NCBI GenBank assembly: GCA_016719885.1
Contig: JADJYF010000010.1
Location: forward strand, 64,814-128,813
DNA length: 64,000 nt
Direction: 5' to 3'
Source: Pseudomonadota bacterium
GTDB taxonomy: Bacteria; Pseudomonadota; Gammaproteobacteria; Ga0077536
A program made the position numbers and the translations under genes. Positions 1-41,040 of the stretch are shown here, piece by piece (the stretch's first letter is position 1; each line of letters begins with the position of its first letter). The notes under the pieces are model-generated. The model was not told the DNA's origin. It was given only the letters and a program-made list of their open reading frames with translations, and searched no databases.

Positions 1-647
1 CCTACTACCAGAGCCCCGAGCTCGACACCACGCTCGCGCCGTGGAACACCTGGGAAGATTATTTCGCCATCACCGCCAAGGAAGCGGGCTTCGAGCAGGC
101 CTGTCAGCGCGGCTTCGCCGAGGCACGCGAGGTGATCCCGGCCGAATTGTTCAAACACGAAAAGGCCATCTGGCCGGCGACGGTCGATGCCATCGCCCTG
201 CACAGCCACCTGCCACGCATGCTGGTGCATTCCGACGTGCACTTGAAGAACTGGTATATCGCCGCGCCCGACCGCATGGGCCTCACCGACTGGCAGTGCT
301 CGTGCAAGGGCCATTGGAGCCGCGATCTTTCCTACGGCATCTCGACTGCACTCACAGTCGAGCAGCGCCGCGCGTGGGAAAAGGATCTCCTGAAGTACTA
401 CCTCGACCTCATGCGCGAAAAGGGTGTGCCGGCCATCGACTTCGACGAAGCGTGGCTGGCCTATCGCGCACAGATGTTCGGTGCGCTGGCGTGGTGGACC
501 GGCACCCTCGGCCAGCCGCCGGAAGCGCCGGCCATGCAGCCGCGCGCCGCCAGCCTCACCTTCATCGAGCGCATGGCGCACGCCGTCCACGACCTCGATT
601 CGCTGGCAGCGGTGGCGAGTTCCAAGCGGCGCTACATGGGTGCTTGA
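1..647 (+). CDS. Phosphotransferase-family (APH/choline-kinase fold) protein, C-terminal part; gene begins upstream of the window
   Basis: The frame is open from the window edge. Catalytic-loop motif HSDVHLKNW (HxDxxxxN) and downstream 'DW' motif. Paralogous to the two other kinases in the window. Confidence 0.6.
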   Translation, partial: YYQSPELDTTLAPWNTWEDYFAITAKEAGFEQACQRGFAEAREVIPAELFKHEKAIWPATVDAIALHSHLPRMLVHSDVHLKNWYIAAPDRMGLTDWQCSCKGHWSRDLSYGISTALTVEQRRAWEKDLLKYYLDLMREKGVPAIDFDEAWLAYRAQMFGALAWWTGTLGQPPEAPAMQPRAASLTFIERMAHAVHDLDSLAAVASSKRRYMGA

Positions 648-1833
648 GACCGACAAGGATCGGCCGGCGCCGGCCGCCATCGCGGCGCTGCGCGCGCGCT
701 TCGCCTGTGAGCCCGAGATCGATCGGATCCTCACGCGCAAGCTCGAACAACGTGCCGGGCCCGGCTACCTGCATCGCGACCTCGCCACCCTGCTGGCCGG
801 CAGCGCGGCGCTGATCCGTGAGCAGGTCGGCGACGACTTCACGATCAGCGACGCGCGCTGGCTGACCGGCGGCGCGTCGAAACTGCAGATGGCGTTCACG
901 CTCGGGTGGACGCCGCCCGGCGAGCCGCGTCGCAACAGTGCGATGGTGCTGCGCATGCAGCCGGCCGAATCGGTGGTCGAGAGCAGTCGGCGGCGCGAAT
1001 ACGAAGTGCTGGCCGCCATGCAGGGCATCGTGCCGGTACCGCCGGTGTACTGGGTCGATGACGAGGCGCGCCACCTGCCCTATCCCGCCATCATCTACGG
1101 CTTCGTCGACGGCGTGACCAAGCCGCGCGACGCCACCAGCCAGGCCAGCGGCATGGGCACGCAACTCGCGGCGCACTGGCGCGACAGTCTCGGCCCGCAA
1201 TTCGTCTCCGCCATCGCGCGCGTGCATCGTACCGACGTGGCGCGGCTGCCGCTGCCGAGCTATGAGAAGCACGCGCCCGGCCTCGATTGCATCGAGCGCA
1301 CGCTCAATCATTGGGAACGGGTGTGGGAAGAAGACGCCGACGAAGACGTGCCGCTCATGCGCCTGGCCTGCGCGTGGCTGCGCCGGCACAGGCCGGCCTG
1401 CGCGCGACCGGCGCTGCTGCACGGCGACTATCGCATGGGCAACTTCCTGTTCACCGAGCACGACGCGCGCATCACCGCCATCCTCGATTGGGAAATGGCG
1501 CGCATCGGCGACCCGCACGCCGACCTCGCCTGGGCCATGAACCCCGCCTACGGCCTGCGCGCCGAAGACGGCAAGACCTGGCTGGTGGCGGGCCTCGTAC
1601 CGGAACGCGAATTCCTGGCGCGTTACCAGGACGAGAGCGGGGTGCGCGTGGACCCGGCCACCTTGCATTACTACCGGGTGCTGTGCGGCTGGGTGCAGGG
1701 TGTGATCGCGCTCGGCACAGCGTGGCGCATCGCCCACAACGCCAAAACCCACCAGGACGTATTGATGGCCTGGATCGTCGGCATCGGTCCCAAGCTCCTC
1801 GCTGAGCTGCGCGCGCTGCTGGCGGAAGGCTGA
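640..1833 (+). CDS. Phosphotransferase-family protein (APH fold; the type often linked to acyl-CoA dehydrogenases)
   Basis: Motifs LTGGASKLQMAF (nucleotide-binding loop-like), LLHGDYRMGNFLF (HGD catalytic loop) and ILDWEMARIGDPHADLAW. The start at a GTG overlapping the previous stop is a guess. The ORF track opens at 424. Confidence 0.6.
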   Translation: MLETDKDRPAPAAIAALRARFACEPEIDRILTRKLEQRAGPGYLHRDLATLLAGSAALIREQVGDDFTISDARWLTGGASKLQMAFTLGWTPPGEPRRNSAMVLRMQPAESVVESSRRREYEVLAAMQGIVPVPPVYWVDDEARHLPYPAIIYGFVDGVTKPRDATSQASGMGTQLAAHWRDSLGPQFVSAIARVHRTDVARLPLPSYEKHAPGLDCIERTLNHWERVWEEDADEDVPLMRLACAWLRRHRPACARPALLHGDYRMGNFLFTEHDARITAILDWEMARIGDPHADLAWAMNPAYGLRAEDGKTWLVAGLVPEREFLARYQDESGVRVDPATLHYYRVLCGWVQGVIALGTAWRIAHNAKTHQDVLMAWIVGIGPKLLAELRALLAEG

Positions 1834-1849
1834 TCGCGGAGCAACCTTC

Positions 1850-2356
1850 ATGCAACTACGCGCCGACCTTCAACTCGCCACCGCCATCCGCGCGCTCACC
1901 GAAGTGGTGCTGCCGGCCGTCGATGCCGACAACGCGCTGGCCGTCGAACAAACCCAGGTCGTGATCGGCATGCTGCAGCTGATGGCGGCGCGGCTGCCGC
2001 TGCAGTACCGCTACGACTGCGATGAGTTGGCGCGCCTGCTCACACTGTGTCGAGCACTGCAGCCTTATGACGACGACGGCGGGCTGGCGGGCGCCACCCA
2101 CGCCGGCGCCGAGGTGCTGGCGCGCGCACGGGCCACGCCACAGGAGATCCTCGACGCCATACACGGCCTGCGTACGCTGAGCGGCGCGGTGGTGAGTAGC
2201 GCCTATCGCGATGGCGACGACGCGGCGCGCGCCGCGCTATCGGCGCTGGTGCTCACTCATGCCGATGAGCAGTTGCTGCGGGAACGCGCGTGGTTCGCGC
2301 CGCAGGGTTGGGAACTCGAGCCGGACGGTGTACCGCCGCTCGAGGATTTGGTGTAA
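1850..2356 (+). CDS. Hypothetical 168-aa protein, paralog of CDS 3409..3915
   Basis: Clean ORF directly after the kinase. The N-terminus LRADLQLATAIRALTEVVLPAVDADNALAVEQ aligns with LDLRLKSVLKALTDVILPALPADERMAREQ of the minus-strand paralog. The two are the same length (168 aa). Confidence 0.5.
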   Translation: MQLRADLQLATAIRALTEVVLPAVDADNALAVEQTQVVIGMLQLMAARLPLQYRYDCDELARLLTLCRALQPYDDDGGLAGATHAGAEVLARARATPQEILDAIHGLRTLSGAVVSSAYRDGDDAARAALSALVLTHADEQLLRERAWFAPQGWELEPDGVPPLEDLV

Positions 2357-2393
2357 GGGCGCTGCGCATGATCGACTCGCCCTTGCGGTATGA

Positions 2394-2460
2394 ATGTCAG
2401 GCTGAAGCCTGACCCACAATGAATACCCTCTCGACCGTGGGTCAGGCTTCAGCCTGACAT
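2394..2460. repeat. Nested palindromic REP-like element (family A): two 24-nt arms, each containing the hairpin GTCAGGCT-GA/TC-AGCCTGAC
   Basis: The arm atgtcaggctgaagcctgacccac and its exact reverse complement gtgggtcaggcttcagcctgacat are separated by 19 nt. It lies between convergent genes. A related copy is at 40964..41040. Confidence 0.6.
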
Positions 2461-2463
2461 CGG

Positions 2464-2582
<119 letters not shown>

Positions 2583-2595
2583 GAATCCAGACGCC

Positions 2596-3366
2596 TCAAA
2601 ACCCGATCTGCGCGCCACCATCCACGTTCAGATGCTGGCCGGTGATATAGCTGGCCGCGTCGGACAACAGGAAGCAACAGGGCTCAGCCACTTCCGCCGG
2701 CTGCGCGATGCGGCCCATGGGGATGCCGGCCATGGTGCGTTCGATGAACTTGGGACTGCGGATGACTTCGGTCATGGGCGTTTCCACCGCGCCGAAGCAC
2801 ACGCTGTTGACGCCGATGTTGAAGCGCGCCCATTCGCGCGCCGCGCTCATGGTGATGCCCAGCACGCCGGACTTGGCGGCGCCGTAATTGATCTGGCCGA
2901 TGGTGCCGCGGCGGCCGGCGATGGACGACACGTTGACGATGCGACGCGACGCCACTTCGCCGGCCTCGGCGCGCTCCAGCATGTGCCGGCCGACCGCCTG
3001 CAGACAGTGGAAAACGCCGGTGAGATTGACATCGATGACCGCCTGCCAGTCGGCCAGCGACATCTTGTGGATCATGGCCGTGCGGATGATGCCGGCGTTG
3101 TTGAACAGGCCGTTGATGGTGCCGTGCCTGGCCACCACTGCTTCGACCATGCCCTGCACGAACGCCGGGTCCGCGACGCTGCCGGCGTGCACGTCGGCCT
3201 GGCCGCCGACCAGCTCCGCGGTTTCACGCGCGCCATCGCCGTTGATGTCGACCAGCACCAGGCGCGCGCCGAGGCTGGCGGCCTTCAAGGCCACGCCACG
3301 GCCGATGCCTTGCGCGGCGCCGGTCACGATGATCACGCGGTCGGTGAGATTCATTGGGTTTTCCAT
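2596..3366 (-). CDS. SDR-family oxidoreductase (FabG-like)
   Basis: TGAAQGIG Rossmann motif, NNAG, and catalytic S...YxxxK (YGAAK). A GGAGAG ribosome-binding site lies ahead of the chosen ATG. The ORF track extends to 3396. Confidence 0.75.
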   Translation of the reverse strand: MENPMNLTDRVIIVTGAAQGIGRGVALKAASLGARLVLVDINGDGARETAELVGGQADVHAGSVADPAFVQGMVEAVVARHGTINGLFNNAGIIRTAMIHKMSLADWQAVIDVNLTGVFHCLQAVGRHMLERAEAGEVASRRIVNVSSIAGRRGTIGQINYGAAKSGVLGITMSAAREWARFNIGVNSVCFGAVETPMTEVIRSPKFIERTMAGIPMGRIAQPAEVAEPCCFLLSDAASYITGQHLNVDGGAQIGF

Positions 3367-3408
3367 GGCGGTTCGCTCTCCGGAAGGGAATGACAAGGGG
3401 TTTGGCGT

Positions 3409-3915
3409 TCAGGGTTCGAACAGCGCGGCGATGGGCGGCAGCCGGCTGGCGTCCGGGTCGAGACCGGCGGCGCCGTGCCAGATGCGTTCGCGCTCGGCGC
3501 GACGCGCGTTGTAACGCAGCACCGCGGCGGTCATCGCCGGCGTGAGGCGTTCCGCGTGATGGGGCGCCAGCAGGCGATCGATGACGGCCTTGAGCGCGCG
3601 ATGGGCGTGGCTCACGGCATCGTAATCGCCGCGATCAACCTCCGCCGCTGCGGCAAGAGCCGCGATCAAGTCGTCGCCCAGCGTACTGTCGTAGTTCATG
3701 CCCGCGAGATCGCTGGCGAGTTCACAGGCCAGCGCCAGGTTGCTGAGCTCGAGCTTGAGCGCATGCTTCCATTGCGCGGCGATGATGTCGAGGTGGCCGA
3801 GTACCAGCCGCGCCTGTTCGCGCGCCATGCGCTCGTCGGCCGGCAGCGCCGGCAAGATGACGTCGGTCAGCGCCTTCAGCACCGATTTCAACCTGAGATC
3901 GAGATCCGGGTTCAT
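3409..3915 (-). CDS. Hypothetical 168-aa protein, paralog of CDS 1850..2356
   Basis: Internal Met MNPDLDLRLK chosen as start. The start overlaps the upstream kinase stop (ATGA). Sequence similarity to the plus-strand 168-aa ORF. Confidence 0.5.
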   Translation of the reverse strand: MNPDLDLRLKSVLKALTDVILPALPADERMAREQARLVLGHLDIIAAQWKHALKLELSNLALACELASDLAGMNYDSTLGDDLIAALAAAAEVDRGDYDAVSHAHRALKAVIDRLLAPHHAERLTPAMTAAVLRYNARRAERERIWHGAAGLDPDASRLPPIAALFEP

Positions 3916-5123
3916 GCGCAAGCCGCTCCCAGGAGTTCGTCGAGCTGGGCCATGAATACCGCCGAGCCGAAAGCCATCCAGGTCAGCACCAGGTCCTGGT
4001 GGCTCTGGCTCTCGAGCGCCGCGCGACACGCTGAGCTGTTATTGATGATGATGCACTTCCAGGCGTTGAGGATCTCGTAGTAGCGGATGGTGTCGGGATT
4101 GATGGTGACGCCGGCCGCCTGCGCATAGCGTTCGAAGAAATCCGCGCGCGTCATCAGTCCCGAGATCAAGAGCTCGCCATCCTCACGCGGCGTGCCGAAC
4201 AGCCGTTGCACGCTCCACGCGAGATCTTCATGAAAATCGCCGAGGTGCGCGAGCTCCCAGTCCAGCACCGCGCTGAAATCGCCGCTCGGTTCGACGAACA
4301 TGAAGTTGCCGATGCGATAGTCGCCGTGCACGACCACCGGCTGCGCACACACCGGCGCGTTTTCCCTGAGCCAGCGTTCGACCAGTGTCACCAGCGGCTC
4401 GGGCTCGACCAGGTCCTGCTGCCAGACCCGCGCCCACCAGTTGACCTGGCGCAGCGCCGCCTGGCAGGTGCCGGCCGCCGGCGCGTCGAAATAGGAAAGC
4501 TCGGCGCGGCGCCAATCGAAGGCGTGGATGCGCGCAAGATTCGCCACGAACTGTGGCGCGAGTCTGGCAATCCAGTGCTCGAAGCGGATGCCGACCCCGG
4601 TCACGGCCTTGGCCGCGACGTCGGTGGGCGCGGTGTTGCCGGCCACCATGCCGGTGATGAGCCCCGGCTGGCCAAGATGCTCGCCATCGGCATCGACGAA
4701 GCGCAGCGGCGGCACCGGCACCGTGCCGGCGAAGGCCGCCAGCAGCTGCGCTTCGCGACCGCGACAGGTCTCGACGATGCCCATCCACGGATCCATGCGC
4801 AACACCAGGCGCTCGGGCGCCGGCGACGCGGCATGGCTCAATGTAAAGGCGAACTGTTCTTTCGACGCGCCGCCCGTCATGCGCGCGAGAGAGCTGATGC
4901 TGACATCGCGCAGGCCTTCATGCGCGAATAGCGCGGTCAATTGCGCTGTGACTTCGGCAACGCTGCGCGCGCCATAGCCGCCGTGGCCACGGCGCGCCAT
5001 CTTGCGCGCCAGCACGTGCACGATGCGCGGCTCGATGTCATCGCGGTTCCAGCGCGTGGCGTCGGCGTCGTCCGATCGCTGCGTAGTCGCCGTCACCACG
5101 TGGCTACAGTTTGCCGGCCGCAC
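3912..5123 (-). CDS. Phosphotransferase-family protein (APH fold)
   Basis: Motifs MTGGASKEQFAFTL, VVVHGDYRIGNFMF and LDWELAHLGDFHEDLAW. Collinear similarity to CDS 640..1833. Confidence 0.65.
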   Translation of the reverse strand: MRPANCSHVVTATTQRSDDADATRWNRDDIEPRIVHVLARKMARRGHGGYGARSVAEVTAQLTALFAHEGLRDVSISSLARMTGGASKEQFAFTLSHAASPAPERLVLRMDPWMGIVETCRGREAQLLAAFAGTVPVPPLRFVDADGEHLGQPGLITGMVAGNTAPTDVAAKAVTGVGIRFEHWIARLAPQFVANLARIHAFDWRRAELSYFDAPAAGTCQAALRQVNWWARVWQQDLVEPEPLVTLVERWLRENAPVCAQPVVVHGDYRIGNFMFVEPSGDFSAVLDWELAHLGDFHEDLAWSVQRLFGTPREDGELLISGLMTRADFFERYAQAAGVTINPDTIRYYEILNAWKCIIINNSSACRAALESQSHQDLVLTWMAFGSAVFMAQLDELLGAACA

Positions 5124-6108
5124 GCAGGCGCAGGTAGGTATCGTAGAACCAGCCTTCCTGGATCTCGCCGTAGCCGACGCGACCGTCGGCCGCCACGTAG
5201 CGGTTCATGACGTTCGGCACGCCCACGCAGCCATAGGGTTCCCACAGCCCCGACGCGACCGGCGCGCCGAGGAAGCGATGGCTCACGCCGCGCACGTCGG
5301 TGGCATGGATCTCGTAATGCGCGCCCCAAATGCCATCGCGGGTGACGATGACCTTGCCGGCGGTGCAACCATGCACCTTGCCTTGGTCGAGCACGAAACC
5401 ATGGGCGAAGCTGTGTTGCGCGTCGGCGGCGCCGTCGTAGTTCATCGACCAGATGGCATGGAAGGCGTAGTCCTCACCGAAGATCGCGTGCAGCCAGGCC
5501 ATCGGTTGCAGCGCGCGCTCCGGCCGTACGCCCCACGAGCGGTCCATGCAGTCGACATAGTCGATGGCGTAGGGCTTGCCGCGCACCGTGAGCTGGCCGC
5601 GGATGCGCACCAGCTGATCGTAATGCCCGCCATAGGCGGCGCCGTAACCCGAACTCGCGGCACGCCCCTGCTCGGAGTCGGCCGCCATCGGGTCCATGCT
5701 CGGGTCGTGGATGTCATAGGCCGGCATGATGGCCTCGGCGTCGAGCTCGAAGCGCGTGTCGTCGATGCCTTCGTAGCTCACGCGGTAGCGCTCGGGCCCC
5801 GCGCTGAGATCGCAGGACAACCCGCTCGGCAGCGTGAACTTGTTGAATTCCGCCGGCGCCGGGACCTGGGTCTGGTTGTCGCTGTACAGCGCGTCGAGCC
5901 GTGAGCGGCCGAGACCCTGGTAGATCTTGACGTCGCTGGTGGTGACGCCGACGCCCGGACGCGCCATCACGTAGGCGCTGCCGAACAGGCCGAGCTCCGG
6001 CACCGCGAACGGCATGTAGAAGGTCTCGGCCCAGGAGTGACGCGTGGCGGCATCGGTCAGATTGGCCATCGCCTCCGGGTGATAGCTCATGTCCCTCGGT
6101 GTGATCAT
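5104..6108 (-). CDS. Conserved hypothetical protein (334 aa)
   Basis: Long ORF with typical composition and no recognisable motif. Its stop overlaps the start of the downstream kinase by 20 nt. Confidence 0.45.
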   Translation of the reverse strand: MITPRDMSYHPEAMANLTDAATRHSWAETFYMPFAVPELGLFGSAYVMARPGVGVTTSDVKIYQGLGRSRLDALYSDNQTQVPAPAEFNKFTLPSGLSCDLSAGPERYRVSYEGIDDTRFELDAEAIMPAYDIHDPSMDPMAADSEQGRAASSGYGAAYGGHYDQLVRIRGQLTVRGKPYAIDYVDCMDRSWGVRPERALQPMAWLHAIFGEDYAFHAIWSMNYDGAADAQHSFAHGFVLDQGKVHGCTAGKVIVTRDGIWGAHYEIHATDVRGVSHRFLGAPVASGLWEPYGCVGVPNVMNRYVAADGRVGYGEIQEGWFYDTYLRLRAAGKL

Positions 6109-6174: not shown

Positions 6175-7251
6175 TCAGGCGAGATCCTGGCGCGCGAGGC
6201 CATGCCGGCCATCGAGAAACTTGTCGAAATGCACATGATCCGCGGCGATGCCCAGCGCGCTCAGCAGCGGCAGGGCGGCATCGATCATCGGCGGTGGGCC
6301 GCACAGATAGGCCTCGGTGTCGGCTGCGATCAAACTTTGCGCGGCGCTCGCGATGTGTTCGGTGACGAGCCCGCGTGCGCCTTGCCAAGCGGCATCGGCG
6401 GCGGCGTCGGACAACACCGGCACGAAGCTGAAGGCGCCGTTCCAGCGCGCGGCGATGGCATCGATGGCGTCCCGCGCGTAGAGATCGGCCTGGGTGCGCG
6501 CGCCGAACAGCAGTACACAGTTGCGCCCGACCTCGCGCGCCGTGGCACTCTCCAGCATGGCCAGCAAGGGCGCGAGGCCGCTGCCGCCGGCAATGCAGAT
6601 CATGGGCGCGCGGCTGTCGCGCAGCCAGAAATTGCCGGCGGGCCCGTGGATCTTGATGGGCATATCGGCGAGATGCCCGGCGAACAGCAGTTCGGTGAAC
6701 TCACCTTCGGGCACGCGGCGCACGAACAATTCGATGGTCGAATTGCCGGCCGCGGCGGGCGCCATGGCCAGCGAATAGGCACGCGCGCCGAACACCGCAT
6801 CGACGGCCAGTTGCACGTACTGGCCGGCGTCGAAGCGCAGCGGCCGATCCAGCGTCAAGGTGACACGCTTGATGTCGTGCGTGAGGTCCTGGAGCGCGGT
6901 GATGCGCCCGATGAAATCGCCGGCCGGATTGAGGCGCTTCGCTTCCAGGCCCGGCACCTCCAGCACCACGTCGGTCTTGGCGCCCGCCTGGCAGGCGAGC
7001 ACCACGTTGTCGCGCAGTTCCTCGGCCGACAGCACGTAGGCGAAATTGGTGATCTCGCGAATCTTGCCGGACTTGAGAAGGCACTTGCACGAACCGCAGG
7101 TGCCGACCGTGCAGCTATGGGGAAAGGCGATACCCTCCGCGAGCGCGGCCTCGAGTATGGATTGATGACGTTTGACCTCGAAGGCGACGCCCGAAGGTTG
7201 CACCGTCACCTTGCTGACGCTCTGTCCGAACAGCGCGCTCAAAATCCCCAT
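6175..7251 (-). CDS. Oxygenase reductase component: N-terminal plant-type 2Fe-2S ferredoxin fused to an FAD/NAD(P)-binding ferredoxin-reductase domain
   Basis: Cys cluster CTVGTCGSCKC plus a later Cys, RAYS FAD motif, and GGSGLAP NAD-binding motif. This is the BenC/XylA/MmoC-type architecture. Confidence 0.7.
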   Translation of the reverse strand: MGILSALFGQSVSKVTVQPSGVAFEVKRHQSILEAALAEGIAFPHSCTVGTCGSCKCLLKSGKIREITNFAYVLSAEELRDNVVLACQAGAKTDVVLEVPGLEAKRLNPAGDFIGRITALQDLTHDIKRVTLTLDRPLRFDAGQYVQLAVDAVFGARAYSLAMAPAAAGNSTIELFVRRVPEGEFTELLFAGHLADMPIKIHGPAGNFWLRDSRAPMICIAGGSGLAPLLAMLESATAREVGRNCVLLFGARTQADLYARDAIDAIAARWNGAFSFVPVLSDAAADAAWQGARGLVTEHIASAAQSLIAADTEAYLCGPPPMIDAALPLLSALGIAADHVHFDKFLDGRHGLARQDLA

Positions 7252-7386
7252 GGCCAGTCGCTCCCCCGCGATCGCCTGATTGTATTTCCAGAAGCCGGGC
7301 CAAAAGCTAACATACCGTACGCATGATTACGATTTTTTTTCGAGCCGTCGTCGGCGACGGATCTGTAAGGGGGAGAGACGGCGACA

Positions 7387-8955
7387 ATGTGGGTCTACAA
7401 GGAAATCCGGACGCTCGGCGACTACCTCGATTACTACGCCCGCCATGCGCCGACGCGCACGGCGCTGGTCTATGAAGGCCATCTGACGAGCTACGGCGAA
7501 CTCGACGAGCAGGCCCGGCGCCTCGCCCATGGCATGCGCGCGGCCGGCGTCACGAGCGGTGCGCGCGTGGTTTACCTCGGCAAGAACTCCGATGATTTCT
7601 TCCTCGCCCTGTTCGGCACCGTCAAGGCAGGCGCCTGTTTCTGTCCGCTCAACTGGCGTTTGTCGCCACCGGAGCTGTGCCGCGTGCTGGCCGATTCGGA
7701 AGCCTCGTTCGCGTTCGTCGAACCGGAATTCGCGACGCTGTGGGCGAGCATGGTCGAAGCGACCAATCTCGACATCACTGTCCAGGAAGTCGATCGCGCA
7801 CGCGGCGCGGACGATCCGCTGCGTCGCTGGCTGGGCGGTTTCGACAGCGCGCCGCTGCCGGCGGTGGCCATGGAAGCCGGCGCCATACAGCTCTACACCT
7901 CGGGCACCACGGGTGATCCCAAGGGCGTGGTGCTCACCCACGACAACTTCAATCACATGCGCCTGTGCGAGCATTTCGAAGCGGCCTTCGAATGGAAGCC
8001 GGAAGACCGCTTCCTGGTCGCGCTGCCGAACTTCCACCTGCTCGCCATCGGCCTGTCGCTGCAGTCGATGTACAACGGCATGGCGGTGGTGATCGACAGG
8101 CAGTTCGAGCCGGGCGCCGCCCTTGAGTCGATTTCCACGCAGAGGCCGACCATCACCGCGTTCGCGCCGGCCATGATCCAGATGCTGCTCGATCACCCGC
8201 AGGCGGCGCAGGCCGATTTCTCGTCGCTGCGTCTCGTGATGTATGCCGGCTCGCCGATTTCGCTCGGGCTCATCAAGCGCGCCATCGTCGCCATGCCCTG
8301 CCGCTTCATGCAGTTCTACGGCGCGACCGAGACCTCCGGCGCCGTCACGCTGCTGCGTCCGGCGGAGCACAACCTCGAACGCGAGGACAAGCTCAAGGCC
8401 TGCGGCAAACCGCTGCCGCTGATTGAACTGCGTATCGTCGACGAGCACGGGCAGGATGTGGCCGACGGCCAACCGGGCGAGCTATGGATCCGTTCTCCCT
8501 CCCTCGCCAGCGGTTACTGGAAGAAGCCGGAAATCACCGCGTCGGTGTTCGAGCAGGGCTGGTATCACAGCGGCGATATCGCGATCCGCGACGAGGAAGG
8601 GCTTTACTACATTCACGATCGCCTGAAGGACATGATCGTGTCGGGTGGCGAGAACATTTATTCGACCGAAATAGAATCGGTGCTCTCGACCCACGCCGCG
8701 GTGGCGGTCGCCGCCGTCATCGGCGTGCCCGATGCGCGCTGGGGCGAAGCGGTGAAAGCCTGCGTGGTGGTCAAGCCCGGCATGAGCGTCAGCGCCGATG
8801 AACTCATCGACTACTGCCGGCCGCGCCTGGCCGGCTACAAGCTGCCGAAGAGCATCGATTTCCACGCCTCGTTTCCCATGACCGGCAGCGGCAAGATTGC
8901 CAAGAAGGAGTTGCGCGAACCGTACTGGGCCGGCCAGGATCGCGGCGTCGGTTGA
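7387..8955 (+). CDS. Acyl-CoA synthetase (AMP-forming, class I adenylate-forming enzyme)
   Basis: YTSGTTGDPKGV AMP-binding motif, GYWKKPE, YHSGD, and C-terminal PMTGSGKIAKKEL. GGAGAG ribosome-binding site upstream. Confidence 0.8.
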   Translation: MWVYKEIRTLGDYLDYYARHAPTRTALVYEGHLTSYGELDEQARRLAHGMRAAGVTSGARVVYLGKNSDDFFLALFGTVKAGACFCPLNWRLSPPELCRVLADSEASFAFVEPEFATLWASMVEATNLDITVQEVDRARGADDPLRRWLGGFDSAPLPAVAMEAGAIQLYTSGTTGDPKGVVLTHDNFNHMRLCEHFEAAFEWKPEDRFLVALPNFHLLAIGLSLQSMYNGMAVVIDRQFEPGAALESISTQRPTITAFAPAMIQMLLDHPQAAQADFSSLRLVMYAGSPISLGLIKRAIVAMPCRFMQFYGATETSGAVTLLRPAEHNLEREDKLKACGKPLPLIELRIVDEHGQDVADGQPGELWIRSPSLASGYWKKPEITASVFEQGWYHSGDIAIRDEEGLYYIHDRLKDMIVSGGENIYSTEIESVLSTHAAVAVAAVIGVPDARWGEAVKACVVVKPGMSVSADELIDYCRPRLAGYKLPKSIDFHASFPMTGSGKIAKKELREPYWAGQDRGVG

Positions 8956-8978
8956 ACATCATCCACGAGGGCGGCGAC

Positions 8979-9350
8979 ATGAGCGAGACGCACGATACCC
9001 AGGCGCTGGTCGAGCGCTGGGCGCGCTATTACAACGATGACGCGACGCGCATGGTGCAGGAATGCTACGCCGCGGACTGCAAGGTCTACCCCATGGGGCT
9101 AGGCGTCATCGAAGGCCGCAAAGGGCTGCAGAAAGTGGAAGACGCGGTGCTCGCCAAGGCGCCTCGGCGTCGCCTGGAAGTGCTGCGCACCCATATCGCG
9201 GGGGACACCGTGTGTGTCGAGTGTGAACTCAAGGACGCCGATCGCGGCGCCGACTGGTCGGTGCCCTTCGTCGCGGTGCTGACCATTCGCGACGGTGAAG
9301 TGATCACCGACCGCACCTATGCCGACTGGAGCCGCTGGCCGGGCCTGTGA
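8979..9350 (+). CDS. SnoaL/NTF2-like small protein
   Basis: About 120 aa. A GAGGG ribosome-binding site precedes the internal ATG. Composition fits the NTF2-like cone fold; this is a weak call. Confidence 0.45.
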   Translation: MSETHDTQALVERWARYYNDDATRMVQECYAADCKVYPMGLGVIEGRKGLQKVEDAVLAKAPRRRLEVLRTHIAGDTVCVECELKDADRGADWSVPFVAVLTIRDGEVITDRTYADWSRWPGL

Positions 9351-19013: not shown

Positions 19014-20132
19014 ATGTTCACGGATTACGCACGCTATTACCTGACTTTCGGCCTGCAGCTGTTGACGGCCACCGGCCTGTGCCTGGGCGGCGCCTGGGCG
19101 TGGCTCGGACTGTCGACGCTGTTCGTATTCGCGGTCATCGACGAGTTGTTGCCGCTCGATCTCGCGGTGCGACACATGAACAACCGACGCCTGGCCAGCA
19201 TTCCGCTGTGGCTGTGCACGTTGAGTGGTCCGCTGCTGGTGCTGGTGCTGGCATGGACCGCCGCCCACGGCCATTTCAGCGGCATCGACTGGGCCGGCGC
19301 CCTGATCAGCACCGCCTGGATGTCGGTCATCGCCTACGTGCCGGCCTCCCACGAGCTTTACCATCAGCGCGGCTGGCTGCCGCAGGTGGTGGGCACCTAT
19401 GGCCAGGTGGTGTATCTCGACTGCACGCGCAACGTCGGCCACACCGTCGGCCATCATCTCGACGTCGGCACGTTGGCCGATTCCGATACCGCGGTGCGCG
19501 GCAAGACGCTGTACGGCTTCACGCCACGCGCGGTGCTGGCCAGCACGCTGATGTCATCCCGCATCGAGAGCGACGCGCTGGAAAAGCGCGGCTACGGCCG
19601 CTGGTCGTGGCGGCACAAGGCCTACAAGGCGGTGCTCGCGCAGCTCGTGTTCCACACCATCGCCTACAGCGTGGCCGGCTGGACGGGCGTGGCGGCGGCG
19701 CTCGGTTCGATGCTGATCGCGCGGCTGTGGGTCGAGTCCTTCAACTACTTCCAGCACTACGGCATCGTGCGCGCCGAAGGCCGGCCGATAGCGCGTCGCC
19801 ACGTGTGGAATCATCTTGGCTTCTTCACGCGCATCGTCGCTTTCGAGATCACCAACCACGCCGATCATCATCTCGATTCCTATATCCCCTATTACAAGCT
19901 GAAGCCCGACACCACCGCGATCCGCACGCCCAACGTGTTCCTGTGCTTCCTGACCGCCTTGATACCGCCCCTGTGGCACAAGGTCATCATCATGCCGAAG
20001 CTCAAGGAGTGGGACTTGAAATTCGCCAGCGCCGAAGAGCGCGACATCGCGCGCGCGCAGAACCTCGCCGCCGGCTGGCCGGACTGGTTTGCCGATTCGA
20101 CGCCGGCGTCCGGCGCGACCGTCGCTGCCTGA
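19014..20132 (+). CDS. alkB: Integral-membrane non-heme di-iron hydroxylase of the AlkB / fatty-acid-desaturase family (alkane 1-monooxygenase-like)
   Basis: Histidine boxes HELYHQ, GHTVGHH and NHADHH, plus NYFQHYG motif. Several hydrophobic segments. GGGGAGA ribosome-binding site. Confidence 0.7.
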   Translation: MFTDYARYYLTFGLQLLTATGLCLGGAWAWLGLSTLFVFAVIDELLPLDLAVRHMNNRRLASIPLWLCTLSGPLLVLVLAWTAAHGHFSGIDWAGALISTAWMSVIAYVPASHELYHQRGWLPQVVGTYGQVVYLDCTRNVGHTVGHHLDVGTLADSDTAVRGKTLYGFTPRAVLASTLMSSRIESDALEKRGYGRWSWRHKAYKAVLAQLVFHTIAYSVAGWTGVAAALGSMLIARLWVESFNYFQHYGIVRAEGRPIARRHVWNHLGFFTRIVAFEITNHADHHLDSYIPYYKLKPDTTAIRTPNVFLCFLTALIPPLWHKVIIMPKLKEWDLKFASAEERDIARAQNLAAGWPDWFADSTPASGATVAA

Positions 20133-20166
20133 CATTCACTTCAACGCCAAGCCCAGGACGTCTCCG

Positions 20167-21417
20167 ATGGCCAACGCATCCCATCCCGACATCAATCTCA
20201 GCACCCTCGAATTCTGGGCACGGCCCTATGAAGAACGGGAAAAGAGTTTCAAGTGGCTGCGTGACAACCAGCCGGTGTCCTGGCACCCGGCGCCGGAGCC
20301 TCTCGCGCCGGGGCTGGAGAACAGCAAGGGCTTCTGGGCCATCACGCGTTTCGAACACATCAAGGACCTATCGCGCAACGACGCCGTATTCTCGTCGGCG
20401 GAAGGCGTGTTCCTCGACGACTTTCCGCAGCTCGAGACCATACTCTCGTTCATCGTCATGGATGACCCGCGCCACAAGGCGCTGCGCAACATCGTCCAGC
20501 ACGCCTTCAGCCCACGGAACATCCGGCGCATGGAGCAGCAGATCCGCGAGATGACCGAGAGCGTCATCGGCGAGGTGGCGCATCTCGGTGAAGGCGACTT
20601 GTGCGAACTGGTGTTCAAGCAATTGCCGGGGCGCGTGTTCGCCGGCGTGTTCGTCGGTATCAGCGATCCGCACAAGCGCGAGATCCTGATCGAAGCCGCC
20701 GAACAGCTCGGCAGCTGGGCCGACCCCAGCTATGCGCACATCGGTTCACCGCTGGCGGTGTTCCAGGACGCTGCGCAGAAGATCATGACCATTGCCTACG
20801 CGGAAGCCGAGCGCTGCCGGCGCGAACCCGATGACAACCTCATGACCTGGGTGGTCGAAGCCGATCACGAAGGCCAGCGCATGACCCAGGACGAGCTCGG
20901 CGCATTCTTCACGCTGCTGGTTGGCGCGGCCAACGACACCTCGCGGCATGCCATGGCCCACGCGGTCATGAACCTGCAGAATCATCCCGAGCAGAAGGCC
21001 TGGCTGCTGCAGGACTTCGAAGCGCGCATCGACAACGCGGTCGAAGAGATCCTGCGCTGGTCGCCGCCTTTGATGCATTTCCGCCGCACCGCGCTGCGCG
21101 ATTTCGAGCTCGACGGCGTGACCATCAAGAAAGGCGACAAGTGCGTGCTGTGGTATTGCTCGGGCAACCGTGACGAAAGGGCGGTGCCGGCGCCGGACAG
21201 CTTCGATCTCAACCGTGCGCCCAACCGCCACTTGAGCTTCGGCTATGGCCCGCACTTCTGCATGGGCGCCTCGCTCGGTCGCCAGATGGTGAAATCGAGC
21301 CTGCGCGAGTTCTCACGACGCATGCCCGACCTGGTGGTCGGCGAGCCCAAGATGCTGCTGTCCAATTTCATGAACGGCGTACTGTCGCTGCACGGGCGCT
21401 GGACGCCGCCCGCCTGA
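20167..21417 (+). CDS. Cytochrome P450
   Basis: Heme-binding loop FGYGPHFCMGASLG, ExxR (EEILR), and an I-helix GAANDTS-type motif. Confidence 0.85.
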   Translation: MANASHPDINLSTLEFWARPYEEREKSFKWLRDNQPVSWHPAPEPLAPGLENSKGFWAITRFEHIKDLSRNDAVFSSAEGVFLDDFPQLETILSFIVMDDPRHKALRNIVQHAFSPRNIRRMEQQIREMTESVIGEVAHLGEGDLCELVFKQLPGRVFAGVFVGISDPHKREILIEAAEQLGSWADPSYAHIGSPLAVFQDAAQKIMTIAYAEAERCRREPDDNLMTWVVEADHEGQRMTQDELGAFFTLLVGAANDTSRHAMAHAVMNLQNHPEQKAWLLQDFEARIDNAVEEILRWSPPLMHFRRTALRDFELDGVTIKKGDKCVLWYCSGNRDERAVPAPDSFDLNRAPNRHLSFGYGPHFCMGASLGRQMVKSSLREFSRRMPDLVVGEPKMLLSNFMNGVLSLHGRWTPPA

Positions 21418-40963: not shown

Positions 40964-41040
40964 TGCGGGTCAGGCCTCAGGAAGCTCTGACACCGGCTGC
41001 GGCATGCCAGCCGTGAATTGTCAGGCTGAAGCCTGACATT
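40964..41040. repeat. REP-like element family A, second locus: a degenerate arm (GGGTCAGGCCTCAG…CTGACA), a spacer, and an intact arm TTGTCAGGCTGAAGCCTGACATT
   Basis: Direct reading. The core GTCAGGCTGAAGCCTGAC at 41020..41037 is identical to the copy at 2397..2414. Confidence 0.5.

Follow-up and report, generated by a model that had tools for sequence, protein, structure and literature searches.

Two kinase-small protein pairs in convergent operons

We analyzed a stretch of 64,000 nucleotides (hereafter called the window) from a Pseudomonadota metagenome-assembled genome (MAG; GCA_016719885.1, contig JADJYF010000010.1), the first kilobases of which carry two copies of a gene pair that encodes an aminoglycoside phosphotransferase (APH)-type kinase and a small protein of 168 amino acids (aa). 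The three kinases of the locus are called K1, K2 and K3, the two 168-aa proteins S1 and S2, and the pair of kinase and small protein K-S; K and S alone stand for the families of K2/K3 and S1/S2, and loci used for comparison are designated L with a number. Two of these, L005 (JGI assembly 3300056624) and L006 (NCBI GCA_009612975.1), are independent assemblies of the window's own locus.

On the forward strand, the window begins with the 3′ part of the EcKL/APH-type kinase gene K1 (3..647; Pfam APH, 3.4e-9; EcKL, 3.3e-5). K2 (640..1833; 397 aa; PF01636, 1.2e-27) follows, with a GTG start that overlaps the K1 stop by 8 nucleotides (nt) and that was placed at the same position in the independent JGI gene call of L005. 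Next comes S1 (1850..2356), an all-helical protein. On the reverse strand lie K3 (3912..5123; 403 aa; PF01636, 2.4e-20), a paralogue of K2 at 40% identity (E=7e-92), then S2 (3409..3915) and a FabG-like short-chain dehydrogenase/reductase (SDR; 2596..3396; adh_short_C2, 6.8e-60). The NCBI call of L006 starts K3 at the GTG at position 5099 instead of at 5123, which would shorten the protein to 395 aa. Directly upstream of K3, also on the reverse strand, is a gene (5104..6108) with the domains DUF7065 and DUF7064 (Pfam DUF7064, 4.8e-10), the product of which is a homologue of 25-phosphosteroid lyase (25-PSL) and is called the lyase homologue below.

The open reading frames named by a first-pass annotation of the window, made from the sequence alone, were all present; the gene at 5104..6108 had been passed over. 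Its assignment of an APH fold to all three kinases was borne out by matches to PF01636 of 97.6 bits for K2, 73.8 bits for K3 and 37.2 bits for the K1 fragment, with a cut-off of 23.2 bits. The open reading frames likewise place a 168-aa protein after each full kinase, K2 and K3, on the strand of that kinase. S1 and S2 are paralogues, as had been proposed, with 28% identity over 164 aa (E=1e-11) and collinearity from residue 6. Both pairs had been described as coupled through overlapping stop and start codons, which holds for K3 and S2 (ATGA, 3912-3915). However, 16 nt that carry a GGAG ribosome-binding site separate the K2 stop (1833) from the S1 start (1850).

The locus had also been pictured as a mirror image whose halves converge on the SDR gene and a structured intergenic region. 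The SDR part of this picture does not stand. The SDR gene is co-directional with K3-S2 and starts 12 nt past the S2 stop; therefore, it is the last gene of a lyase-K3-S2-SDR operon and not a neutral center. The point at which the two operons converge is the 239-nt spacer 2357..2595, which does hold a hairpin. A gene for a reductase with 2Fe-2S and FAD/NAD domains, of the kind that serves oxygenases as the electron-transfer component (6175..7251, reverse strand; Fer2, FAD_binding_6, NAD_binding_1), lies upstream of and co-directional with the lyase gene and probably belongs to the same transcription unit. At least six MAGs keep the whole arrangement of a TetR-K1-K2-S1 operon facing SDR-S2-K3-lyase, with identities of 60-90%.

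The kinase and the small protein are inherited together

The pairing was followed in a census limited to one genome per species, in which 123 loci were found and 80 were kept; gene clustering covered 81 non-redundant loci with 98 S genes. A K-type kinase gene adjoins S on the same strand in 95 of the 98 cases (89 in the order K>S, 6 in the order S>K), and the remaining three are explained by locus ends or by one gene inserted between the two. The distance from the K stop to the S start is most often +1 nt (43 cases) and falls between -4 and +5 nt in 80 of the 89 K>S pairs. In Polycyclovorans algicola, a 5.7-Mb MAG and Rudaea, S sits 1 nt downstream of an APH gene of 398-416 aa, and the other neighbors differ. 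Pairwise distances of K and S were strongly correlated (r=0.878; maximum of 0.257 in 999 permutations), with S evolving faster than K (mean distance of 0.58 versus 0.45).

A single S-linker-K fusion was seen, as a protein sequence alone: in P0136 (599 aa), a low-complexity linker of ~35 aa joins an S domain (1-176) to a K-type kinase. The domain order of P0136 is that of the rarer S>K gene order found in L022, L028, L039, L041, L069 and L053. Given the adjacency, the gap, the co-divergence, the fusion and the conserved arrangement, K and S are passed on and duplicated as one unit. A lack of conservation of the pairing had been named as grounds for refutation; instead, the pairing is kept in essentially every S-bearing genome, in support of the earlier view of the repeated kinase and partner as a two-component unit.

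The hosts in the census include Nevskiales (Panacagrimonas, Solimonas, Hydrocarboniphaga and Nevskia), Sterolibacteriaceae and Rhodocyclaceae, Aromatoleum, Rhodoferax, Pseudomonas borbori, Caballeronia, Paraburkholderia, Novosphingobium, Frankia/Protofrankia and Solirubrobacteraceae. Sterolibacteriaceae and Rhodocyclaceae are often multi-copy, and single MAGs give up to four or more loci. Cultured carriers include Sphingopyxis macrogoltabida, Rhodococcus opacus, Polycyclovorans algicola, Panacagrimonas perspica and Aromatoleum toluclasticum. Some loci hold arrays of the form K-K-S-K, S-K-K-S or K-S-lyase-lyase-K-S (L048 3479..7874 of A. toluclasticum; L053; L055; L062; L086), which suggests a family of substrate-specific paralogues.

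K2 and K3 belong to the ACAD10/11-LvaA-Rv3168 clade

Both full kinases carry the expected active-site motifs. The catalytic loop (HxDxxxxN), the metal-binding Asp and the DWE motif are found in LLHGDYRMGNF and ILDWEMARIGDP of K2 and in VVHGDYRIGNF and VLDWELAHLGD of K3, and H261, D263, N268, D283, W284 and E285 are invariant among 16 K relatives. The K family is large and regular, with 1564 matches at E<=1e-20 of a uniform length of 398-399 aa. It also possesses a strongly conserved N-terminal extension of ~32-45 residues, which LvaA, Rv3168 and 9FSG do not have.

Among solved structures, the closest matches of K2 were Rv3168 (3ATS, 2.7e-17, the best), 9O56, 3DXP, the kinase domain of the acyl-CoA dehydrogenase (ACAD) family protein ACAD11 (7e-14 with K2, 1e-13 with the K profile) and 9FSG (7.7e-14). 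The last is an APH-like protein deposited alongside 25-PSL, which we take, from the adjacent PDB codes and its size, to be 25-hydroxysteroid kinase (25-HSK), although this is unconfirmed. The best solved match of the K-family profile (6e-25), and also of the LvaA homologue (3.7e-17), was 9O56, an unpublished 355-aa structure labeled 'aminoglycoside phosphotransferase'. With the LvaA homologue that a Pseudomonas aeruginosa plasmid encodes in a canonical lva operon, K2 shares 29% identity (E=8e-22). A profile of Sterolibacteriaceae kinases did not reach the 25-HSK of Sterolibacterium denitrificans among its best 120 matches, which were saturated by closer metagenomic relatives. K scored far below the cut-offs of the antibiotic-kinase models of NCBIfam.

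On these sequence matches, K2 and K3 are small-molecule kinases of the ACAD10/11-LvaA-Rv3168 clade, and their closest characterized relatives lie there rather than among the antibiotic kinases. The earlier guess of an ACAD10/11-type APH is correct as to the clade, as judged from the PDB relatives and the identity to the LvaA homologue. However, the elimination by an ACAD known from ACAD10/11 and LvaC does not travel with this module: an ACAD cluster was present in only 4 of the 81 loci.

The small protein resembles LvaB

The earlier view that the 168-aa proteins lie outside any well-characterized family was confirmed. Neither S1 nor S2 matched a model in Pfam or NCBIfam, and the 189 close homologues of S1 are all 'hypothetical' and carry no Pfam domain. 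A profile search expanded the family to at least 1053 clusters at 50% identity, the representatives of which are nearly all stand-alone proteins of 165-190 aa; they span Gamma-, Beta- and Alphaproteobacteria and Actinobacteria and are multi-copy in steroid and hydrocarbon degraders. An AlphaFold2 (AF2) model of S predicts a five-helix bundle (pLDDT 93.6) followed by a conserved extended tail, and the conserved termini read MQLR... and RERAW..PQGWE..P. Foldseek found no relative of this model among solved structures, and the S profile matched only designed proteins in the PDB. S has neither a DNA-binding domain nor a catalytic-looking motif.

The levulinate (lva) operon of Pseudomonas putida offers a candidate relative. 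According to the passages of PMC6692424 that cite Rand 2017, the 12-kDa LvaB is recovered with the APH kinase LvaA in pull-downs, is needed with LvaA for the phosphorylation of 4-hydroxyvaleryl-CoA and is required for activity and growth. We took LvaB genes from annotated plasmids, starting with a truncated Azotobacter copy and proceeding by tblastn to DUF6285/lvaB genes. Their products belong to Pfam DUF6285 (PF19802; matches up to 4.8e-24), and the P. aeruginosa protein is annotated as '4-hydroxypentanoyl-CoA kinase subunit LvaB'. Its gene lies in the operon prpR-kinase-LvaB-(His phosphatase)-ACAD-SDR-CoA ligase-DUF485-symporter. The LvaB gene lies directly 3′ of LvaA with a 4-nt overlap (L090 and L092), in the same position as S relative to K.

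In profile-profile comparisons, S2 alone matched the LvaB profile with a probability of 28% (P=6e-4) over 105 columns, including the invariant G..D motif of LvaB. The profile of the S2 subfamily (13 sequences) matched it in hhalign with a probability of 76.7% (P=2.1e-5) over 61 columns. The score of this match was 36.8, compared with a mean of 11.9 (standard deviation, 2.2; maximum, 20.9; z=11.4) for 150 column-shuffled controls and ~11 for reversed-profile controls. Because this match coincides with homologous kinases and an identical gene position, we consider it quite likely that S is a remote homologue of LvaB. On this view of its sequence, S would probably be an LvaB-like subunit enlarged by ~50 C-terminal residues.

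S had been suggested to be either a specificity partner or an anti-kinase. As S is probably a remote homologue of LvaB, we favor, by analogy, a specificity or activity subunit; the anti-kinase half of the suggestion is disfavored because LvaB is required for activity.

A 25-PSL homologue accompanies half of the pairs

A homologue of the protein encoded by 5104..6108, ~330 aa in length, is found in 41 of the 81 K-S loci, usually directly upstream of K or downstream of S, and its gene directly flanks K-S in ~44% of cases. The window protein matches the NCBIfam 'Rv3169 family' weakly (5e-7, below the cut-off). A profile of 35 family members reached the 25-PSL structures 9FZN, 9G2I and 9G4C at 5.9e-9, and the motif DRSWGVRP in the 25-PSL alignment is identical in the window protein. 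Within the family, D189, S191, G193 and R195 are invariant, and the 9G4C chain carries a D->N change at the Asp of the motif. The three 25-PSL entries were released in January 2026.

The predicted fold agreed with the profile match. In Foldseek, the AF2 model of the window protein (pLDDT 93.8, pTM 0.91) had 25-PSL as its top five matches (E from 1e-11 to 2e-10, probability 1.00, TM 0.62-0.66), with ~14% identity in the structural alignment. The next matches were fungal pericyclases, kievitone hydratase and AttH; the fold of the window protein is that of AttH/CrtC/kievitone hydratase. In sequence and predicted fold, the 5104..6108 protein is therefore a homologue of 25-PSL, which makes it a candidate for the phosphate-eliminating lyase.

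K1, the intergenic spacer and other neighbors

K1 had been counted as a third kinase of the module, which we rejected. In L005, K1 is a full-length protein of 393 aa (7616..8797) encoded directly after a TetR gene (6906..8797 spans both), and this protein matches K2 only at E=0.02; it is an EcKL-like APH of another subfamily, related to K2 and K3 by fold only. K1 is the first gene of a TetR-controlled K1-K2-S1 operon, and its orthologues (cluster 16) precede K2 in L008, L009, L012 and L074. The order TetR-K1-K2-S1, with two unlike kinases in one operon, is kept in L008, L009 and L012. Upstream of TetR in L005 lies a divergent set of Rieske dioxygenase and extradiol dioxygenase genes.

Other differences between the window and L005 were noted. 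The K2 of L005 (8790..9956) has 388 aa, and its identity to the window K2 ends near residue 355; the SDR of L005 (10630..11402) is broken into calls of 59 and 198 aa. Both are likely to be frameshift errors or strain variants.

The spacer between the two operons holds an inverted repeat resembling repetitive extragenic palindromic (REP) elements (2394..2461; 24-bp stem; dG -60.5 kcal/mol; z=-7.08), which is probably a bidirectional terminator. Its repeat unit, GTCAGGCTGAAGCCTGAC, recurs 38 kb away at 41020..41037 (six matches versus 0.08 expected) and is probably a genome-wide REP or terminator element. The hairpin is followed by a run of 115 G (2466..2580; Tandem Repeats Finder, period 1 x115) flanked by a duplicated GGTTG. 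L005 and L006 do not contain this run and both read ...catcggttgaatcc... across the site. Since two independent assemblies of the locus do not have it, the run is an artifact of the source MAG, introduced by sequencing (of the two-color-chemistry type) or by assembly, and a role of the tract as a regulatory element was rejected on the same grounds. Other artifacts of this kind may exist elsewhere in the source assembly.

Beyond the reductase, a divergent acyl-CoA ligase gene (7387..8955, forward strand; AMP-binding, 2.8e-86) is followed by a gene for a SnoaL-like protein (8952..9350, forward strand; SnoaL_2, 3.7e-11). The region from 10 to 21 kb of the window encodes two enoyl-CoA hydratases, an SDR, an NMO-family protein, three ACADs (13-19 kb), an FA_desaturase and a P450. 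The last two, an AlkB-type FA_desaturase-family protein and a cytochrome P450, are encoded by neighboring genes (19014..21417) ~14 kb from the module and are candidate sources of the alcohol for the kinases. The setting of the module in the window is catabolic.

Across the census, an SDR recurs in 28 of the 81 loci, and further recurrent neighbors are Rieske oxygenases, Zn-dependent alcohol dehydrogenases (Zn-ADH), AraC regulators, P450/rubredoxin and Y_phosphatase3. Sphingopyxis macrogoltabida combines several of them in the cluster lyase-K-S-lyase-ADH-Y_phosphatase3-P450-rubredoxin, with a similar 2Fe-2S protein flanking. The Y_phosphatase3 gene ('tyrosine phosphatase') lies just downstream of K-S(-lyase) in 12 of the 81 loci (e.g., L004 9559..10365 and L089 9714..10466), and the corresponding position in lva-type clusters is taken by a histidine-phosphatase gene (L090, L094 and L095). 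A phosphatase next to K-S may serve in the salvage of dead-end phosphoesters. A pair of genes for a DUF4386-like membrane protein (~252 aa) and a COX3-like protein (~190 aa) was also seen near K-S, in L004 (10432..11782) and 12 other loci, sometimes twice in one locus.

Discussion

Overall, the observed gene anatomy, the obligate linkage and co-divergence of K and S, the clade of the kinases and the homology of the lyase led us to a putative mechanism, to which we assign a probability of roughly 55%: K and S form a two-subunit kinase that feeds a 25-PSL-type lyase, and the two activities together bring about an ATP-dependent dehydration in lipid or steroid catabolism. S would be a noncatalytic subunit of K, a longer and distant homologue of LvaB that, by analogy with LvaB, would be needed for the activity, stability or specificity of the kinase. 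The substrate of K3·S2 would be a hydrophobic catabolic intermediate with a hydroxyl group; once this group is phosphorylated, the lyase homologue would eliminate the phosphate to leave an alkene, much as 25-HSK and 25-PSL do in the anaerobic degradation of the cholesterol side chain. K2·S1, encoded behind TetR and the EcKL-like kinase, would act as another such kinase with a specificity of its own, and the SDR may make or use up a hydroxyl or keto group nearby, in the manner of LvaD. The 2Fe-2S/FNR-type reductase upstream suggests that the alcohol is made by an oxygenase. We infer a physical K·S complex as well as the order of kinase before lyase. With low confidence, we consider free steroid, terpenoid/isoprenoid or lipid alcohols to be the substrates rather than 4-hydroxyacyl-CoA, because the neighbors are oxygenases, Zn-ADH and Y_phosphatase3 and ACADs are rare (4 loci).

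Several observations weigh against this mechanism. About half of the K-S loci lack a lyase gene within 6 kb, and none belongs to the K1-K2-S1 operon itself. Some loci, such as K-K-S-K of Aromatoleum, hold several K but one S. The 25-HSK of S. denitrificans is a monomer and fully active without a partner, so the fold does not intrinsically need one (PMC8449060). The resemblance of S to LvaB has limits as well: it lies mainly in the two N-terminal helices and has moderate probability, and S is ~50 residues longer. Broad S profiles gave only weak N-terminal matches to LvaB (2.5-10%), and the Pfam DUF6285 model, which omits the first helix of LvaB, reached one of 39 S members (E=0.27) and none of 13 S2-type members.

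A different fate of the phosphoester would follow if K·S were a true enzyme of the Lva or ACAD10/11 type, phosphorylating a 4-hydroxyacyl-CoA supplied by the neighboring ligase and SDR, with elimination by an ACAD and the lyase acting elsewhere. The kinship of K2 with the LvaA homologue and the likeness of S to LvaB would suit such an enzyme, as would the SDR of the K3 operon and the divergent acyl-CoA ligase, which mirror LvaD and LvaE, and the three ACADs at 13-19 kb. However, canonical lva operons hold the kinase, LvaB and the ACAD contiguously, and no ACAD adjoins either pair in the window. Across the census, the ACAD cluster of 4 loci stands against the 25-PSL homologue of 41, and the recurrent neighbors (Rieske oxygenases, Zn-ADH, P450/rubredoxin and Y_phosphatase3) are not genes of CoA pathways. 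We therefore regard this explanation as unlikely. About equally unlikely, in our judgment, is that S is an adaptor or channeling scaffold, or a part of the eliminating activity, that hands a labile phosphoester from the kinase to the lyase. Coupling of this kind is a live alternative because formation of the phosphoester is thermodynamically uphill: the reaction of 25-HSK is freely reversible with Keq<1, and the lyase has to draw its product onward (PMC8449060). The frequent direct flanking of K-S by the lyase gene (~44%) and the conserved termini of S (MQLR... and RERAW..PQGWE), which are typical of docking segments, fit this role. However, S tracks K in ~97% of cases and the lyase in ~50%, the only fusion seen joins S with K, and LvaB works with an ACAD and not with a 25-PSL-type lyase; S also lacks a catalytic-looking motif and a structural relative.

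Less probable again is that S is a helical bundle that binds lipids and solubilizes or presents the hydrophobic substrate to the kinase. The tight coupling of a small protein to a kinase-fold protein could also recall regulation of the kinase by an inhibitor or antitoxin-like protein, or a defense or toxin-antitoxin module. We consider this very improbable: K2, K3, S1, S2 and the lyase homologue matched no PADLOC defense model, S lacks a DNA-binding domain, the pairs sit within catabolic operons that also encode lyases, SDRs and oxygenases, and LvaB, the probable relative of S, is not inhibitory but needed for both activity and growth. Thus, a two-subunit kinase that feeds a 25-PSL-type lyase is the explanation that we prefer.

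We also put forward a broader proposal, as a tentative one that we think has the odds against it: S may be a large and as yet unnamed family whose members are obligate subunits of kinases and, with K and in half of the cases the lyase, may constitute widespread and unrecognized ATP-dependent alcohol dehydratases. The K-S and lyase combination is common among the environmental degraders of the census and is unannotated there. If the proposal were true, the chemistry of phosphorylation followed by elimination, known from one anaerobic pathway for sterols and from the catabolism of 4-hydroxy acids, would extend to the aerobic degradation of lipids, terpenoids and steroids, and S would do what the monomeric 25-HSK can do without, such as coupling of the kinase to the lyase or substrate specificity. 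The analysis provides a testable function for DUF7064/65 and 'hypothetical protein' genes in their hundreds, Rv3168/Rv3169 among them, and a way to ask what an LvaB-type subunit does. The K-S-lyase triad could also serve as a marker for new alcohol-activating catabolic pathways.

Comparison with known systems

To our knowledge, ATP-dependent dehydration has been recognized only recently, in three cases: the lva operon, ACAD10/11 and 25-HSK/25-PSL. A close counterpart of K-S itself is LvaA/LvaB of P. putida, in which an APH kinase of the same clade is followed by a coupled small protein, with an SDR and an acyl-CoA ligase nearby and often a phosphatase beside the pair (a histidine phosphatase in lva clusters, Y_phosphatase3 in K-S loci). 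However, S is longer than LvaB (165-190 versus 118-131 aa) and fails the DUF6285 and NCBIfam models, and the N-terminal extension of K (~32-45 residues) is absent from LvaA. Moreover, no contiguous LvaC-type ACAD is found at K-S; the eliminating enzyme that travels with K-S would be the 25-PSL homologue.

Rv3168 (3ATS) and Rv3169 of Mycobacterium tuberculosis form another point of comparison, as Rv3168 is the best PDB match of K2 and the lyase homologue weakly matches the 'Rv3169 family'. Judging by the gene numbering, the two presumably form a neighborhood of a kinase and a DUF7064/65 protein. We know of no S gene there and of no assigned function for either protein. The kinase domains of mammalian ACAD10 and ACAD11, which act on 4-hydroxyacyl-CoA, fall in the same APH subclade as K2. 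In these proteins, the kinase is fused to the ACAD domain that carries out elimination, and a subunit like S or LvaB is absent (PMC12440821), whereas K is a free-standing kinase with its partner as a separate protein and a lyase that is not an ACAD.

The lyase side of the locus recalls S. denitrificans, in which 25-HSK places a phosphate on the tertiary C25 alcohol, to be eliminated by a lyase with formation of a Δ24 alkene (PMC8449060, PMC11061730). The gene of that lyase was still unidentified in 2021-2024 (PMC8449060, PMC11061730), and 25-HSK wastefully phosphorylates 26-OH steroids (PMC8449060). The two systems share the logic of an APH-family kinase and a phosphate-eliminating lyase, and the lyase homologue of the window shares the DRSWGVRP motif and the predicted fold of 25-PSL. 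In addition, Sterolibacteriaceae MAGs hold multiple copies of K-S. In contrast to K, 25-HSK acts alone as a monomer, and its gene is not beside the lyase gene (PMC8449060). Moreover, K2 is only distantly related to 9FSG (E=7.7e-14), the lyases share only ~14% identity, and the K-S hosts are mostly aerobic degraders of hydrocarbons and steroids.

The K-S module is thus not without precedent; on sequence grounds, it would be a divergent two-subunit kinase of the LvaAB type combined with a lyase of the 25-PSL type. By joining an LvaAB-like kinase with a 25-PSL-like lyase, the locus in the window would bring together features of the lva operon and of the 25-HSK/25-PSL system.

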